This document shows positions 3,195 to 63,967 of a DNA stretch of 64,000 nucleotides, in pieces. The notes beneath the pieces are model-generated. The model saw only the letters and a program-made list of their open reading frames with translations. It made no database searches and was not told where the DNA came from. This DNA is from Algoriphagus marincola HL-49 (lineage in GTDB: Bacteria; Bacteroidota; Bacteroidia; Cytophagales; Cyclobacteriaceae), in NCBI GenBank assembly GCA_001314815.1, contig LJXT01000001.1:7301-71300 (forward strand). Reading direction: 5' to 3'. The first letter of the stretch is position 1. Every line of letters begins with the position of its first letter. Both the position numbers and the translations under genes were made by a program.

Positions 3195-4170
3195 GTAGTT
3201 TTAAGATCTGATCCTTATTTGGCTTTCGGTGAAGTCCTTTATAAGGATTGTAACCGTTGGTATTTTTTTGATAGTATCCTGTCCCATCATAGGGACGCTT
3301 CTCGGGATGCTCTTTGCACTCGGGGGAGCAAGCACCTTCTAATTCCCACCCGCATGATTCACAGATAGGCACATGGATATTGCAGACCGAGTTGGCACAA
3401 TTGACCATGCGGTCGGAGGGAGTACCACAGACATGACACTTGGATACGATGGTCGGATTCACTTTGTTGACATCTACAGCGATCCGATTGTCAAAGACAT
3501 AGCATTTGCCTTCGAAATCCTCTCCGCCCGCTTCCATTCCGTATTTGATAATGCCACCATGAAGCTGGTAGACATCTTCAAAACCCTGCTCCAAAAGAAA
3601 TGCGGATGCCTTTTCACACTTGATTCCTCCTGTGCAATAGGTCAAGACTTTCTTGTTCTTCAAATGCTCCAGTTCCTTCACTTTTTCTGGGAAATCCCGG
3701 AAATTGTCAATATCCAAAGTGAGCGCATTCTTGAAGTGCCCTAGCTCATGCTCGTAGTTTGAGCGGACATCCAAAATGACCACATCTTCCTGGTCTTTGA
3801 GCTTTTTAAACTCTTCCGGCTCCAAATGCTTACCGGTGCGGACATTTGGATCCAAATGCCTGAGGGAAGAGTGTACAATCTCCGGCTTATACCTGACGTG
3901 AATTTTAGTAAAGGCATGCTTGTCATGACTGTCAATCTTGAACTCTGTCTTGGCAAATCGAGTATCGGCATGGACATAGGCCATGTACTTTTCACAATCC
4001 TTTTTCAGTCCAGAGACCGTTCCGTTCAATCCCTCATCTGAAATGATGATTCGACCCCGGATATTGTTTTCCACGCAAAATAGGTGGTGCTGCTCCCTGT
4101 ACTCTTCGGGATTTTCGATTTTTGCATAGCAATAGTACAGGAGGATTTGGTAGTCTTTGTTTTGTTCCAT
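3166..4170 (-). CDS. trhO: tRNA uridine(34) hydroxylase TrhO (rhodanese-related, YceA family)
   Basis: GRIIISDEGLNGT, LDVRSNYE, YCTGGIKCEKAS, LHGGIIKY, FVFDNR-type motif, C-terminal Cys cluster. Confidence 0.85.
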   Translation of the reverse strand: MEQNKDYQILLYYCYAKIENPEEYREQHHLFCVENNIRGRIIISDEGLNGTVSGLKKDCEKYMAYVHADTRFAKTEFKIDSHDKHAFTKIHVRYKPEIVHSSLRHLDPNVRTGKHLEPEEFKKLKDQEDVVILDVRSNYEHELGHFKNALTLDIDNFRDFPEKVKELEHLKNKKVLTYCTGGIKCEKASAFLLEQGFEDVYQLHGGIIKYGMEAGGEDFEGKCYVFDNRIAVDVNKVNPTIVSKCHVCGTPSDRMVNCANSVCNIHVPICESCGWELEGACSPECKEHPEKRPYDGTGYYQKNTNGYNPYKGLHRKPNKDQILKLHGETQDSCI

Positions 4171-4257
4171 AACTCAGGCCCTGTTTCGGCAGGGTGTTGA
4201 AGGATTTATGATTTACGATTTAAAGAAGTACGAAATTTGTATCAATTGAATGTTGAT

Positions 4258-4893
4258 TTATTTCACTTTGGCCGCCGGATTTCCAAAGACCGTTTCATTC
4301 GCTCCCACCGAGCTGATGACCACCGAACCGGCTCCGATTCGGGCATTCTTTCCAATAGTCACTCCAGATACGATTGTTGCGCCAGAACCGATAAAGGCAC
4401 CTTCTTCGATCGTCACCTCCGAATTGATAATGCTTCCTGCACCAATCTGCACATAGTCTGCCACTTTCACATGATGATCTATGATCGCTCCGGTGTGCAA
4501 AATACAATGCTGACCAATTTCGGTACCTGTACCGAGAGTAACCCGAGCATTGATGAAATTGCCATGGCCAATCGCCGCATCACTGGAAATAAATGCTGTG
4601 CTATGAATCGCATTGACCGGCTGTACCTTACGCCGCTCATTCAAAAGCTCCACAATAAACTTCCGATACTTGGCATCATCGACTGCTACAAAGGCTTCTG
4701 TCTTCTTTCCAATCAGTTTTAGAAATCCATCATCTTCCGGATGGCCCAAGACAGGCACCGTATTGATTTCAGAGCCATGCAACTTTTCGTCCTCCTCGAG
4801 AAAGCCATAGACCACAGCTTCATTGCTATTGAAAATCTCCAAAGCTGGCTGGGCTATTCCTTTTGCTCCAAATATTATGATTGGTTTATCCAT
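4258..4893 (-). CDS. NeuD/PglD-like sugar O-acyltransferase (hexapeptide repeat)
   Basis: N-terminal IIIFGAKG Rossmann-like segment, left-handed beta-helix repeats, GAGSVV and VFGNPA. Start MDKPII chosen because TACTTTTG (4913-4920) lies just upstream. Confidence 0.85.
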   Translation of the reverse strand: MDKPIIIFGAKGIAQPALEIFNSNEAVVYGFLEEDEKLHGSEINTVPVLGHPEDDGFLKLIGKKTEAFVAVDDAKYRKFIVELLNERRKVQPVNAIHSTAFISSDAAIGHGNFINARVTLGTGTEIGQHCILHTGAIIDHHVKVADYVQIGAGSIINSEVTIEEGAFIGSGATIVSGVTIGKNARIGAGSVVISSVGANETVFGNPAAKVK

Positions 4894-4947
4894 TTTTCTT
4901 GATTTTGGATTGCAAAAGTACGGCAATTCAACACCATCGCCAAAAAA

Positions 4948-6243
4948 TCAACCTTTTGTCGACTTAATCAAACTTTGGGCGATTTTGCATTGCAAGCATT
5001 TCTTAGGAGAACAATAGGTCCGGAATAGCCCTATCATCCCTTGGGAATCGAAGGCATTGGCCGCTTTCCAGTCGGATGACTCAAACTTTCGAATAATAAA
5101 ATTCCGCTCAGCAGGTATCTCTTGAAGGAGATCAAAGCATCGCTCCTGCCAATCTGGATTTTGGAAATAGCGACCGTAAGCAAACCACAGCGGCATAACA
5201 AAATTAATGATAAGCAGCTGCAAAACTGTACCAGAGATGCCTCTAGAGGCCATTTTTTCGGAAGACTTCCCAAAAGAGTAATGATATAACCAATAGTCTG
5301 AAGGCTGGACTTGCAATAGCTTTTTGAAGGAAGCAAAGTCCCGGGAATCTTCCATCACCGCCTGAAGTAAATTGGGAGCTTTAGCCAAAATTGCAGCAAG
5401 TTGGGCGATCCTTAGAGTTGGAAAATTACTGGGGCGAACTCCCATAAAATTCCAGTGCTGACGAAGGAGCTGATCCTGCCAGCCAAACTTTTTCTGATAA
5501 AAATCATACTCCCGAATCAGGTGCTGCACGTAGGGTTCTTCCGTTTTGTCGGGCAGAAGCCCCGCCAAACCAAAAAGCATCGCTTCCACCGCAGATAATT
5601 GATTTCGATGCTTTTGCAGGATTTTATAAGGTAGCAGGCTAGCTAAATCCAGCATCGGACTAGCATTGGTCTTGAAACCAAAACACTGAAACAGCCAACG
5701 ATAAGCCGTCTCTTCCCAATCGCCCTTGGTCTGATCCAGAATCTGAAGAATCTGCTCTGATTTTTGATGCAAGCGTTCTACTAGAGCCTTTTCCAGAGCT
5801 GAAAATCGGATGATTTCGGGCACCTGAGACAAAGCGTGACCACAAGGCAGGTCTTGCTCATAATGGAGAAGCTGCTCGTAATTCCGCCAAATTTCCAGAA
5901 AAATCCTCCCCTCCAATTCCAAGGTAGGAATACGAGTTCCATCTTTTCGCAGAGCGGATTTATCATCTTTCCAGACCACATGGAGGATGACCGAATTGTA
6001 GGCCGAATCTCCATCATGTGCGTGCTGCTTCCACTCAGAAGCCAAGCGATGCACCTCCACATGGCCATGAAATGTCACTCCGTCTAAAACTATCGTCGCA
6101 TCTCTGAAATCCGGACCTTCGCCTAGATTATGAATACCTACATTCAGGATTTGGACCGATTGTCCATCTGTGGTTTGGAGGCCTTTCCGATCAAAGTATT
6201 GATACTTCCAGACGAGTTGTAAAAAGTCTTCTTTAAAATTCAT
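4948..6243 (-). CDS. DUF2851 family protein
   Basis: MxEDFLQLVWKY, GPDF, HVEVH..SEWKQHAH..D.AY.SVILHVV, RPSNFPTLRIAQLA, C-terminal C..KKCLQCKI. Confidence 0.9.
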   Translation of the reverse strand: MNFKEDFLQLVWKYQYFDRKGLQTTDGQSVQILNVGIHNLGEGPDFRDATIVLDGVTFHGHVEVHRLASEWKQHAHDGDSAYNSVILHVVWKDDKSALRKDGTRIPTLELEGRIFLEIWRNYEQLLHYEQDLPCGHALSQVPEIIRFSALEKALVERLHQKSEQILQILDQTKGDWEETAYRWLFQCFGFKTNASPMLDLASLLPYKILQKHRNQLSAVEAMLFGLAGLLPDKTEEPYVQHLIREYDFYQKKFGWQDQLLRQHWNFMGVRPSNFPTLRIAQLAAILAKAPNLLQAVMEDSRDFASFKKLLQVQPSDYWLYHYSFGKSSEKMASRGISGTVLQLLIINFVMPLWFAYGRYFQNPDWQERCFDLLQEIPAERNFIIRKFESSDWKAANAFDSQGMIGLFRTYCSPKKCLQCKIAQSLIKSTKG

Positions 6244-9338: not shown

Positions 9339-10514
9339 TCAAGTCTTTGATTTCACTTTTTTCAAAAATTCAGACAACCCTACAGCAAAAGTTCCCTCTG
9401 AAATAGGAAACTCTTCTTGGCCTGCATAGATAAAATACCTATGGGTAGCCTTAATATCCGCAGCTCCTGTAGAAAAGCCTTTGGATAATTTTGGACTTAG
9501 CGTCCGTTTGATTTCAATAGCCCAAAGTTCACTACCTAGCTGAATGATCAAGTCCAACTCCGCTCCTGCTGATGTACGATAGAACCCATAGTCCGCATTT
9601 TTTGGCAAAACGGATAGAATATTCTCAATCACAAAACCCTCCCAACTAAAACCCAATACCGGATGGCCGAGCAGGCTATCAAAGTTATTGATTTGAAGAA
9701 GTGTATGGGTAATGCCTGAATCCCGTATATACACTTTTGGAGTTTTCACCAAGCGCTTTCGCACATTTGCAGTCCAAGGACGCAAGGACCTGACTAATAG
9801 TAGATCTTCCAAAAGCTCCACATAGGACTTGACCGTGGGGGAACTGAGATCAAGACTTGCCCCAAACTTAGAGAAGTTGATCAGCTGTCCCTGCTCATGT
9901 GCGAGCATGGTCCACAACCTTCTCAGGCGATTGGTAGGTACAAACTGGGCAATTTGAGGAATATCTCTTTCCAGATAAGTAGTGATGAAATTTTGTCTCC
10001 AAGTCATACTGGACTTGTCCGAACTCGCCAAAAACGAGTCAGGAAACCCTCCCCGAAGCCAGAGCTTTTCTAAATTATCTTCATCACTTCCCACTTCTAA
10101 GATGGAGAAGCCAGCTAACTCTTCATATGCTATTCGTCCTGCCAGGCTCTCAGATGATTGTCGAATCAGCTCGAGAGAAGCCGATCCTAGAATCAGGAAT
10201 TGGCAAGAGCGCAAGCCATCTTTCCTATTTCGATCAATAACTCCCCTCAAAACTTGGAATAGATCCGGCATACGCTGGATTTCATCTAGGATGATGAGTT
10301 TGCCATCGTTCAACTCAAAGTATTGCTCTGGTTCTGCCAGTTTGGCTCGGTCACTTGGACTTTCCAGGTCAAGGTAAATGGACTCCTGATCAAAGTTTTC
10401 AGCCAAAGCTTGTGCAAGCGTAGTCTTTCCCACTTGCCGCGATCCTAAGATGGCAATGGCTGGGAAATCCGGCATTAATTCTTCGAGTCTTTTGTAAAGC
10501 AATCGTTTAATCAT
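9339..10514 (-). CDS. AAA_14 ATPase with winged helix and DUF4143 (PD-(D/E)XK-like) domain
   Basis: Walker A GSRQVGKT, Walker B IILDEIQ, ESLAGR, LRGGFP, TPKVYIRDSG, C-terminal ELDL..AIEIK. Confidence 0.92.
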   Translation of the reverse strand: MIKRLLYKRLEELMPDFPAIAILGSRQVGKTTLAQALAENFDQESIYLDLESPSDRAKLAEPEQYFELNDGKLIILDEIQRMPDLFQVLRGVIDRNRKDGLRSCQFLILGSASLELIRQSSESLAGRIAYEELAGFSILEVGSDEDNLEKLWLRGGFPDSFLASSDKSSMTWRQNFITTYLERDIPQIAQFVPTNRLRRLWTMLAHEQGQLINFSKFGASLDLSSPTVKSYVELLEDLLLVRSLRPWTANVRKRLVKTPKVYIRDSGITHTLLQINNFDSLLGHPVLGFSWEGFVIENILSVLPKNADYGFYRTSAGAELDLIIQLGSELWAIEIKRTLSPKLSKGFSTGAADIKATHRYFIYAGQEEFPISEGTFAVGLSEFLKKVKSKT

Positions 10515-10551
10515 CCTTGCAAATTTAAAATCATATTTTAAATTTGCAAGG
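10515..10551. promoter_or_regulatory. Perfect 17-3-17 palindrome containing the promoter of the ATPase gene
   Basis: CCTTGCAAATTTAAAAT-cat-ATTTTAAATTTGCAAGG. On the minus strand TTG-N19-TAAATTTG ends 5 nt before the ATG. Confidence 0.7.
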
Positions 10552-62037: not shown

Positions 62038-62681
62038 TGAACTCCGGCACCCAGCTGATTCTTTCCTATTTTCCTAATCTAACTGAAAAGCAGATTGAGC
62101 AATTCGATCGCTTACAGGAACTCTATGCTGATTGGAATGCAAAAATAAATGTGATCAGCCGCAAGGACATGGATCAGTTTTACATCCATCATGTCCTTCA
62201 TTCCTTGGGAATAGCCCAAGTCATGCGATTTCAGCCTGGCACCAAAGTACTCGATATCGGTACGGGGGGAGGATTTCCGGGAATCCCATTAGCCATTCTT
62301 TTTCCAGAAACTCACTTTCACCTAGTGGATTCGATTGGAAAAAAAATTACAGTTGTGAAAGAGGTAGCCAAAGCCCTTAAGCTCAGCAATGTAGAAGCCC
62401 AACAAGCCCGGGCGGAGACATTAGTACGGAAATATGATTTTGTGATCAGCCGCGCCGTGACCCGTATGATCAATTTTTACCCTTGGGTCAAAGGAAAAAT
62501 CAAGCGAGAGGATTTTAATGAATTTCCCAATGGCGTCCTTTACCTCAAAGGAGGCGATGTGGATGAGGAAATGGAGGAAACAGGCAAATCCTATGTAACC
62601 TACCACTTAAGTGACTATTTCAAGGAAGATTTTTTTGAGACCAAAAAGGTGGTCTATATGCCCTGGGAGGACAAAAGGTGA
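62037..62681 (+). CDS. rsmG: 16S rRNA m7G527 methyltransferase
   Basis: WNAKINVISRKD, HVLHSL, LDIGTGGGFPGIPLAI, DSIGKK, SRAV, LKGG. Confidence 0.97.
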   Translation: MNSGTQLILSYFPNLTEKQIEQFDRLQELYADWNAKINVISRKDMDQFYIHHVLHSLGIAQVMRFQPGTKVLDIGTGGGFPGIPLAILFPETHFHLVDSIGKKITVVKEVAKALKLSNVEAQQARAETLVRKYDFVISRAVTRMINFYPWVKGKIKREDFNEFPNGVLYLKGGDVDEEMEETGKSYVTYHLSDYFKEDFFETKKVVYMPWEDKR

Positions 62682-62684
62682 CAG

Positions 62685-62772
62685 ATTGTACCTTTTAAGA
62701 TACAGTTTGATCCTAAAATTGTACTTTTAAAGATACAATTCAACCCTTTTACTGTATCTTTGAAGGTACAGT
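62685..62772. promoter_or_regulatory. Three 22-bp imperfect palindromes at exact 33-bp period; the third contains the -7 element and overlaps the GTG start
   Basis: ATTGTACCTTTTAAGATACAGT (62685), ATTGTACTTTTAAAGATACAAT (62718), ACTGTATCTTTGAAGGTACAGT (62751); TATCTTTG at 62755-62762. Confidence 0.85.
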
Positions 62773-63967
62773 GGAAAACCTTTTAAAAAGATATCAATCG
62801 TTATTATCCAAGGTTCAACTTGGGTTTGAGAGAAATTTATCTTCCCAAATCAATTGGGAAGCAAGAGCTATTGGACTAAAAGGAGCACGTGGAACAGGGA
62901 AATCCACACTCATGCTTCAGCAAATCAAGAAGCGGGGGGATTTCTCCAAATCGGTATACATTTCATTAGATGACCTCTATTTCAAAAATAATACTGTCCT
63001 AGATACTGCTGAGCAACTTTATCGTGACGGGATCCGAAGACTTTATTTGGATGAAGTTCATAAATACCATGATTGGCAGCGGGAAATAAAAAATTTATAT
63101 GACTTCTACCCGGATCTAAAGCTGATCATTTCTGGATCTTCTATCCTTGAGCTTCAGAAGTCTAGTGTTGATCTAAGTCGAAGAGTTCTGTTTTATGAAT
63201 TACCGAGCCTTTCTTTTCGGGAATTTTTAGAATTAAAATATGGCATCATAATTCCAAAATTCACATTAGAAGAACTACAGAAAAATCATATTTCAATCGC
63301 ACAAAGTATTAAAGAAAAGCTAGATTCACCTCTCACCTATTTTCGTGAATTTCTAGAATATGGCGCTTATCCTTACTTTATGGAGGGGGTAACAGATTTC
63401 GGCTATCGGCTTCAGCAGGTCGTCAATGTAGTAATCGATTATGATTTACCTGAGGCCAAAGATATCTCGGTGGGCACCCAAAGCAAACTGAAAAAGCTTC
63501 TTTTTATACTCTCAGAATCAGTTCCCTTCACTCCGAATATTTCAAAACTTGCAACCCAACTTGAAACCACAAGGCCAATCCTATTGGAGATGCTCTATTT
63601 ACTTGAAGAAGCGCGTCTAGTCCGGAATCTGAGGTCCGCTAGCAAAGGAACTTCACTGCTTAATAAGCCTGAAAAAATTTATCTCTCAAACACCAGTTTG
63701 ATTCATAGTTTTTCTGAAAAAGGAAGAAATCAAGGAAATCTCAGAGAAACATTTGCCATTGACCAACTTCAAAATGCAGGCTATTCAGTCACATTCCCGA
63801 AACAGGGTGACTTTCTGGTTAATGAAACTTATTTATTAGAAATCGGTGGAGCGGGGAAAGGTTCGTCTCAGGTATCAAATTTTGAAAACCATCTTATCTT
63901 CTCAGACGATTTGGAAATAGGCTGGGGAAGAAAGCTCCCACTATTTTTACTTGGATTAATGTATTAA
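62771..63967 (+). CDS. AAA_14 ATPase with winged helix and DUF4143-like C-terminal domain
   Basis: Walker A GARGTGKS, Walker B LYLDEVHKY, SGSS, LSRR, YGAYP, PNISKLA..L, KPEKIYL, RETF, DFLV...EIGG.GK. Confidence 0.92.
   Translation: MENLLKRYQSLLSKVQLGFERNLSSQINWEARAIGLKGARGTGKSTLMLQQIKKRGDFSKSVYISLDDLYFKNNTVLDTAEQLYRDGIRRLYLDEVHKYHDWQREIKNLYDFYPDLKLIISGSSILELQKSSVDLSRRVLFYELPSLSFREFLELKYGIIIPKFTLEELQKNHISIAQSIKEKLDSPLTYFREFLEYGAYPYFMEGVTDFGYRLQQVVNVVIDYDLPEAKDISVGTQSKLKKLLFILSESVPFTPNISKLATQLETTRPILLEMLYLLEEARLVRNLRSASKGTSLLNKPEKIYLSNTSLIHSFSEKGRNQGNLRETFAIDQLQNAGYSVTFPKQGDFLVNETYLLEIGGAGKGSSQVSNFENHLIFSDDLEIGWGRKLPLFLLGLMY

Follow-up and report, generated by a model that had tools for sequence, protein, structure and literature searches.

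Introduction

Restriction–modification controller (C) proteins acting on C-boxes, and the operators of toxin–antitoxin systems, are circuits in which a DNA-binding fold sits on palindromes over its own promoter and a potentially harmful nuclease gene is placed under feedback, with specificities that differ between systems and so avoid cross-talk. NrdR, a nucleotide-binding repressor composed of a zinc ribbon and an ATP-cone, oligomerizes on two phased boxes that overlap promoters, and the archaeal Orc1/Cdc6 initiators, which act on origin recognition boxes, bind repeated inverted sites, often beside their own gene. Here we examine two genes, p1 and p2, in a 64,000-nucleotide stretch of the Algoriphagus marincola HL-49 genome (assembly GCA_001314815.1, contig LJXT01000001.1, positions 7,301 to 71,300 of the forward strand; hereafter the window, to whose first base all coordinates refer). 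Both belong to the AAA_14/winged-helix/DUF4143 family, which joins an ATPase, a winged helix, and a nuclease-like tail in one polypeptide, and both are probably self-repressing, single-gene modules that carry private operators over their own promoters.

The original prediction, a brief note made from the sequence of the window, knew of no established function for the family; it corresponds to PDC-S01 of PADLOC, a phage-defence candidate, and DUF4143 is classed in the PD-(D/E)XK superfamily (PMC3424549). The candidacy derives from "guilt-by-embedding" only (bioRxiv 10.1101/2024.01.29.577857). Its members are highly abundant, frequently in several copies (PMC12988326, PMC13356809); it is reported to rank fourth among defence-system calls across prokaryotes and first by frequency among the single loci of rumen genomes (PMC12988326, PMC13356809). 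We found no published description of the operator arrays: a literature search on DUF4143, COG1373, and PDC-S01 returned no paper on operator arrays, autoregulation, DNA binding, or target.

Candidate operators and promoters of p1 and p2

The two genes lie far apart in the window and on opposite strands.

62771..63967, plus strand: p1, 398 amino acids, GTG start; AAA_14/winged-helix/DUF4143-like ATPase-nuclease open reading frame
9339..10514, minus strand: p2, 391 amino acids, ATG start; canonical AAA_14 plus DUF4143 ATPase-nuclease open reading frame with an intact D...E-I-K motif

Immediately upstream of p1 are three 18-bp palindromes of the form TGTAYC-N6-GRTACA, spaced exactly 33 and 33 bp from start to start. 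The p2 gene is preceded by a single perfect inverted repeat of a different sequence.

62687..62704: p1 candidate operator O3 (distal), TGTACCTTTTAAGATACA; palindrome, with a site at the same position in 90%- and 67%-identical relatives
62720..62737: p1 candidate operator O2, TGTACTTTTAAAGATACA; 33 bp from O3, covering the expected -33 region, and kept in the relatives
62753..62770: p1 candidate operator O1 (proximal), TGTATCTTTGAAGGTACA; 33 bp from O2, its last base directly preceding the GTG, and kept in the relatives
62755..62762, plus strand: p1 candidate Bacteroidota -7 box, TATCTTTG (TAnnTTTG), inside O1; read from the sequence
10515..10551: p2 candidate operator, a perfect 17+17 inverted repeat CCTTGCAAATTTAAAAT-N3-ATTTTAAATTTGCAAGG with a 3-nt loop, abutting the ATG
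10520..10527, minus strand: p2 candidate -7 box, TAAATTTG, in the right arm of the p2 palindrome; read from the sequence

The promoter consensus of the Bacteroidota consists of TTG at -33 and TAnnTTTG at -7. At p2, a TTG at 10547-10549, in the left arm of the palindrome, lies 19 nt upstream of the -7 box, which yields TTG-N19-TAAATTTG on the coding strand. The candidate promoters of both genes fit the -33/-7 consensus and predict leaderless or nearly leaderless mRNAs. The earlier claim that each promoter is buried in its gene's own palindrome beside the start codon therefore holds at the level of motifs, and more strongly than first put, as p1 possesses three copies of its palindrome rather than one.

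Two further features of these promoters deserve mention. The p1 gene begins with GTG, a codon that is ATG in its 90%-identical orthologue; as the -7 box is just 8 nt upstream, a leaderless GUG start would be expected to be poor in translation, and the window's copy may be weakly expressed. At p2, TTG-N19-TAAATTTG is readable on the opposite strand too, both elements being in the arms of a perfect palindrome, which predicts a mirror-image antisense promoter aimed at the 3′ end of the adjacent LPG_synthase_TM gene.

Private sites among the paralogues of one genome

The original prediction counted two paralogues, and the genome has about 15. In the assembly (3.8 Mb, 42% G+C), 13 proteins match the Pfam DUF4143 family, and an iterative search recovers 15 clear family members and one more distant ATPase. 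Six of these, 39-45% identical, constitute the p1 subfamily; one paralogue is 50% identical to p2. By eye, a palindrome or repeat peculiar to the gene can be seen no more than about 100 bp from the start of almost every member, often in two to three copies 32-33 bp apart. Given that a single best-palindrome score undercounts such multi-copy sites, k-mer coverage was used in its place. Inverted 7-mers cover a median of 50 nt upstream of 16 family genes versus 12 nt in 1377 intergenic controls (Mann-Whitney p=3e-9), and direct repeats cover 26 versus 0 (p=3e-6).

Exact matches to each operator pattern occur in the genome essentially at the cognate gene only, the 12-base patterns giving a few single matches elsewhere at about the number expected by chance. 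Since exact copies stand essentially only at their own gene, the sites are private and define no regulon.

A fixed geometry across relatives

To place these arrays in a wider context, 190 p1-subfamily loci were gathered, 80 from species genomes, 80 from metagenomes, and 30 from a scan of 401 Bacteroidota genomes (49 with a member). Once the six members from this genome were added, a start and upstream region fit for use were available for 188, of which 174 were left when sequences at 90% identity or above had been removed. In these 174 relatives, found in many genomic contexts, 18-bp TG-N14-CA palindromes peak at -18..-23, -51..-56, and -83..-87 from the start codon. The peaks are 33 bp apart, as are 56 of the 74 called pairs of sites. 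Under a strict criterion, namely two near-palindromes 31-35 bp apart that end near the start, 41 of 85 loci score versus 5 of 1700 coding-sequence windows. Upstream of 76 foreign loci, inverted repeats are enriched relative to the flanking genes (p=1e-8) and to A+T-matched controls (p=3e-5). The palindrome enrichment that had been proposed as a check on the original prediction is thus found both within the genome (p=3e-9) and at foreign loci (p=1e-8).

The sites are also in register with the candidate promoters. A TAnnTTTG motif stands at -26/-27 in 126 of the 174 loci, and where a proximal site was called, the last two bases of the -7 box are the first two bases of that site in 44 of 49 cases. 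The predicted transcription start thus falls under the proximal site and the -33 region under the next one; this predicted layout is the geometry of repression by occlusion.

A 90%-identical p1 orthologue is found in another genome of the genus (G405) at the same position between rsmG and dnaE, and a 67%-identical relative lies on a metagenome contig (L091) and has a recognition helix nearly that of p1 (TTRPILLEM). In both, three sites occupy the same positions and the TGTAYC/GRTACA half-sites are kept, with diverged spacers. Likewise, both 17-nt arms of the p2 palindrome are 100% conserved in two 81-82% orthologues that differ in the 3-nt loop and the flanks, and the outer arms, CCTTGCAAAT...ATTTGCAAGG-ATG, are kept down to about 50% protein identity. 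The retention of half-sites and arms alongside changing spacers and loop supports the view that selection acts on the half-sites.

Co-variation of the recognition helix with operator bases

If the sites are read by the product of the gene that they precede, the DNA-contacting residues and the half-site bases should change together. The structural model of p1 (see below) places these residues as follows.

63470..63685, plus strand: p1 winged helix-turn-helix, residues 234-305, comprising H1 (234-250), H2 (257-263), H3 (268-280), and a beta-hairpin wing (284-305); from the model
63572..63610, plus strand: p1 recognition helix H3, R268-A280, in which positions 269 and 272 co-vary with half-site bases

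Plain mutual information is inflated throughout the protein by shared ancestry, and normalized or corrected scores, clade-level counts, and close-pair contrasts were used. Among all variable columns, residue 269, the second of H3 and adjacent to the invariant R268, shares on average the most normalized mutual information with the half-site, and residues 266, 267, 270, and 272 are high as well. Loci with Asn269 have C at half-site position 3 in 25 of 28 cases, compared with 6 of 55 without it (Fisher p=1.6e-12); Asp269 accompanies G at position 5 in 11 of 13, compared with 4 of 72 (Fisher p=4.5e-9). Among the genome's own paralogues, the C116 type is an Asn-type member and has the half-site TGCACA. 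When each clade (a cluster formed at 60% identity of the protein without its winged helix) is counted once, the Asn269-C3 association stands at 10/12 versus 4/36 (p=8e-6), and the rule is seen again inside one cluster of 21 close relatives. In close-pair contrasts, residue 272 ranks top, and 10 of the top 25 columns fall in the winged helix versus about 3.5-4 expected (p 7e-4 to 3e-3). The p2 subfamily offers a parallel: an inner repeat of the GGAAT type is found in 15 of 18 cases where Lys occupies the equivalent of position 269, versus 1 of 11 where it does not (p=2.6e-4, uncorrected for ancestry). Such co-variation is what direct read-out by the gene's own recognition helix predicts. It also supports the earlier suggestion that operator and winged helix co-diverge, with residue 269 tracking half-site bases even at the level of clades.

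Protein architecture

The model of p1 was computed with AlphaFold2 from 96 subfamily sequences (pLDDT [predicted value of the local distance difference test] 93.8, predicted template modeling [pTM] score 0.92). In it, the AAA+ core is joined by a helical linker to a canonical winged helix, which is followed by a small domain of alpha-beta-beta-beta type. In addition to the winged helix listed above, two domains can be delimited.

62858..63235, plus strand: p1 AAA+ P-loop core, residues ~30-155, with the AAA_14 match over 32-153, Walker A G38-x2-G41-x-G43-K44, Walker B D94-E95, sensor S123-S124, and R137-R138
63686..63964, plus strand: p1 C-terminal PD-(D/E)XK-like domain, residues 306-398, with candidate catalytic residues E326, D347, E357, and K363, an E-x-G-G-x-x-K variant of ExK

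Invariant among the 96 sequences are K44, D94-E95, S123-S124, and R137-R138 of the ATPase, R268 in the first turn of H3, K299-P300-x-K302 of the wing, and R325-E326, D347, and E357-x-G359-G360-x-x-K363 of the tail.

At the level of families, p1 and p2 match AAA_14 (PF13173) at 94.2 bits (8e-27) and 91.7 bits (5e-26), respectively, against a Pfam gathering score of 27 bits. For DUF4143 (PF13635; gathering score 28.1 bits), p2 is a clear member at 153.7 bits (4e-45), and p1, at 26.9 bits (E 4.7e-6, covering profile positions 12-124 of 160), stays just under the cut-off. The p1 subfamily is nonetheless linked to canonical DUF4143 members by iterative search, with an identical domain order. Both are solitary genes that match PADLOC PDC-S01 models (p2 2.6e-91, p1 8e-27), and their proteins are 24% identical to each other.

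Searches of the Protein Data Bank (PDB) by sequence gave generic P-loop matches only. By fold, the best PDB matches that Foldseek gives for the p1 model are 2fna (E 6.8e-8), the archaeal AAA+ ATPase SSO1545, and 2qby_B (E 2e-6), Orc1/Cdc6 bound to DNA. PD-(D/E)XK nucleases make up nearly all of the weak matches of the p1 tail (influenza PA endonuclease, I-Bth0305I, YaeQ, NhoI/Eco15I, and PvuII), and the predicted alpha-beta-beta-beta core of the tail fits that fold with the Lys shifted to 363; the p2 tail has the canonical E, ELD, and E-I-K residues. The original prediction fares well here. Both open reading frames proved exact in their coordinates, and the tail motifs quoted for them were found, the invariant set of the p1 subfamily being E326, D347, and E357-x-G-G-x-x-K363. 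The proposed assembly of P-loop ATPase, winged helix, and PD-(D/E)XK-like tail is supported by the Pfam matches, the p1 model, and the invariant motifs, with fold matches of the p1 tail that are weak.

A model of self-regulation

Because the private sites shift in step with the recognition helix across some 200 relatives, the protein most likely binds them and shuts off its own gene. Self-binding and autorepression by the p1 and p2 proteins are, as far as comparison of sequences can take them, well supported. The core of the original prediction, a self-contained and autorepressed module, gains comparative backing from the fixed position of the sites in 174 relatives, their privacy, the conserved half-sites, and the helix-base rule.

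In the proposed mechanism, dimers would bind each palindrome through H3, with the invariant R268 as anchor and residues 269 and 272 setting operator specificity. In the p1 type, the two to three palindromes 33 bp apart, or three helical turns, would lie on one face of the DNA, and the AAA+ domains would join the bound dimers into one complex. This complex would cover the -33 and -7 elements and the transcription start, such that the gene represses itself. Distinct operators would stop cross-regulation among the paralogues of one cell. As for the function that is kept under such control, a role in defence against phages or other mobile elements is our leading guess.

Several considerations weigh against this reading. 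The site-calling criteria are passed by 41 of 85 to 97 of 174 p1 relatives, the rest presenting other geometries or weaker sites. The promoters are assigned from the consensus motif alone. Shared ancestry also raises the mutual information of numerous columns beyond the winged helix, and the residue-base rules are correlations, though they survive clade-level counting. Folded alone (pLDDT 85.7), the p1 tail finds no significant match in the PDB (best Foldseek E 0.17). Autoregulation leaves the need for an ATPase and a nuclease unexplained. In three paralogues of the genome (on contigs C148, C142, and C105), IQV[S/C/A] replaces the E-x-K nuclease motif, and catalysis is probably lost; all three keep their palindromes, two of them as phased pairs, and toxicity therefore cannot be the sole reason for the design. 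Self-regulation would, it follows, persist in members that are probably nuclease-dead. With regard to defence, one PDC-S01 gene challenged in Escherichia coli B with T7, T5, and T4 fell outside the four protective candidates (bioRxiv 10.1101/2024.09.26.614923).

A bolder extension is, in our view, quite improbable. PDC-S01 proteins might be a very large family of sequence-programmable AAA+ nucleases with a simple code in which residues 269 and 272 read half-site positions 3-5. Beyond its part as operator, the 33-bp array at the promoter would be a resting platform, where three dimers form a hexamer-like, ATP-controlled, nuclease-silent complex until foreign DNA, a phage factor, or some other trigger releases or re-targets it. 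Turnover of the cassettes would take place at chromosomal hotspots (here rsmG-dnaE), often beside replication genes.

Genomic setting and turnover

The view of each module as a lone gene amid unrelated neighbours holds. Flanking p1 are rsmG (GidB) and a dnaE-type polymerase gene; the neighbours of p2 encode an LPG_synthase_TM protein and a protein with no match in Pfam. The orthologues of p2, 81-82% identical, come from two genomes of the same genus and share its upstream neighbour. The stop codon of rsmG is at window position 62681, and the gap downstream of it is a variable hotspot in the genus, where rsmG loci were compared in 12 genomes (our own and 11 of the 30 other genus genomes scanned).

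rsmG-dnaE gap with a p1-type gene: 2 genomes, our own and G405 (L246)
rsmG-dnaE gap with a different DUF4143 subfamily: 3 genomes, G409, G418, and G406 (L243-L245)
rsmG-dnaE gap empty, 219-453 bp: 3 genomes, G422 (L247), G401, and G430
rsmG with another downstream neighbour: 4 genomes

The different subfamily is 46% identical to a paralogue on contig C162 of our genome, with four or five direct repeats, each about 23 bp long (TGTACAATTTCAAAGTTAACC), ahead of the gene. This apparently rapid gain, loss, and replacement resembles that of defence or selfish genes. Comparison of filled with empty rsmG-dnaE gaps revealed no element ends, direct repeats, or target duplications, in intergenic DNA too diverged for boundaries to be drawn. 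The family occurs in 1 of 50,697 phage records and in 35 of 72,556 plasmids, all of them typed as non-mobilizable. A mobile element or homing-type selfish gene thus seems unlikely, considering that no ends or duplications were seen, that phages almost lack the family, and that the plasmids are non-mobilizable. Exchange through the conserved flanks can explain the turnover. The lone phage-collection record, MT839230.1, is a 5.9-kb sequence from a human faecal sample that bears no annotation; it encodes a p1 relative at 4051-5040, with 36% identity over 96% of the query.

Elsewhere in the genome, the paralogues sit singly among housekeeping genes, outside defence islands. Five of the 15 have a gene of DNA replication or recombination next to them (a dnaE-type polymerase, dnaN, dinB in its C-terminal part, an XerD-like recombinase, and RNase H), which seems to be in excess of chance. 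A sixth adjoins an IS200-like Y1 transposase, and another a PIN-domain gene. The distant ATPase, an AAA+ protein of 436 amino acids (C103:22851-24207) reached only by iterative search from p2, has a private inverted repeat of its own, TTATTGTAA-N21-TTACAATAA, right before its ATG. In two paralogues (C172:13896-15150 and C144:17205-18720), a near-identical second copy of the whole 55-65 bp operator module follows right after the stop codon. These genes are thus bracketed by direct repeats, with no gene next on that strand, and the repeats could serve in looping or represent the remnant of a tandem copy or the ends of a cassette. Bracketing was discarded as a general feature, given how seldom (2 of 86) genes of the p1 subfamily have downstream copies of their operator.

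Alternative explanations

The most serious rival, unlikely but deserving of weight, grants that the arrays are bound by the cognate protein and assigns them a different purpose. They would act mainly as the protein's DNA substrate or assembly platform, where for instance an ATP-dependent complex like that of Orc1/Cdc6 could sense DNA or act on it, or as sites that the nuclease cuts or pairs when cassettes are gained, lost, or exchanged. The kinship of the p1 fold with DNA-bound Orc1/Cdc6, whose members likewise bind repeated sites beside their own gene, speaks for it, as do the bracketed genes on C172 and C144, the three states of the rsmG-dnaE gap (filled by p1, filled by another DUF4143 subfamily, or empty), and the invariance of the nuclease-motif residues in the p1 subfamily. 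However, the sites overlap the -7 box and predicted start exactly, as an operator must and a docking platform need not. Bracketing is rare, filled and empty sites display neither target-site duplications nor defined ends, p2 is inherited in conserved synteny within the genus, and the family is scarcely represented among phages and confined to non-mobilizable plasmids in the plasmid collection.

It is very unlikely that the palindromes go unbound by the product of their own gene and instead are sites of another regulator, terminators of the upstream gene, or structured RNA or DNA such as hairpins, cruciforms, or elements like the repetitive extragenic palindromes (REP). Both upstream regions, taken as single strands, are far more stably folded than shuffled sequences (z -7.0 and -6.6), and the p2 palindrome lies 29 nt past the stop of the upstream gene. 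Yet no terminator-like site was found when one was looked for, and the p1-type sites, being A+T-rich with 6-nt arms and 6-nt centres, would make poor hairpins. Long-range pairing is weaker in the 90% orthologue (-19.4 versus -32.5 kcal/mol), where the half-sites are kept; on these grounds, readings as terminator or RNA structure were rejected. Furthermore, the position is fixed to the downstream start across unrelated contexts, and sites that are private to each paralogue and track its own recognition helix are unexpected of a shared regulator or structural element.

That the repeats are a chance feature of upstream regions with 73% A+T, DNA in which short palindromes are common, is practically out of the question, being already contradicted by the A+T-matched enrichment, the strict criterion, and the sharp position peaks 33 bp apart.

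Significance and comparison with known systems

If they self-repress as proposed, these modules would be useful in several ways. A cognate DNA site for each member, together with a predicted residue-to-base rule, provides an experimental handle on a defined 100-bp fragment. The genome's ~15 repressor-operator pairs, predicted to be mutually orthogonal, would form a natural set for studying how paralogous regulators avoid cross-talk. Should the proteins self-regulate and have no defence activity, the large "defence" counts that build on PDC-S01 would need revision.

Among described systems, the closest is PDC-S01 (COG1373) itself, whose members, too, consist of one gene that joins an ATPase to a PD-(D/E)XK domain. 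The papers that we searched cover the protein family and its distribution alone, without operator arrays, and the p1 subfamily is set apart by its position just under the DUF4143 cut-off and by ExGGxxK instead of ExK. The SSO1545-type archaeal ATPase, an AAA+ protein with helical and winged-helix parts, is the best full-length structural match (2fna; TM score 0.44-0.49), at just 14% sequence identity to p1, and gives no mechanism. Orc1/Cdc6 shares the AAA+ core followed by a C-terminal winged helix. The p1/p2 family differs from it in the extra nuclease-type domain, in about 15 copies per genome that have private sites, and in promoter sites at a fixed distance from the start. Membership in the initiator family was accordingly rejected, the copy number in a bacterial genome, the added nuclease domain, and the promoter sites leaving a likeness in working principle only. 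With NrdR, the p1 type has in common phased boxes over the promoter; it is unlike NrdR in fold and in its private sites, where NrdR serves a conserved regulon through one shared box. The C proteins and toxin–antitoxin systems resemble the circuits proposed for p1 and p2 in their self-controlling, palindromic, system-specific operators. What distinguishes p1 and p2 from these is the union of regulator, ATPase, and nuclease in one polypeptide, with no methylase or antitoxin as partner, and, in the p1 type, two to three sites phased at 33 bp.

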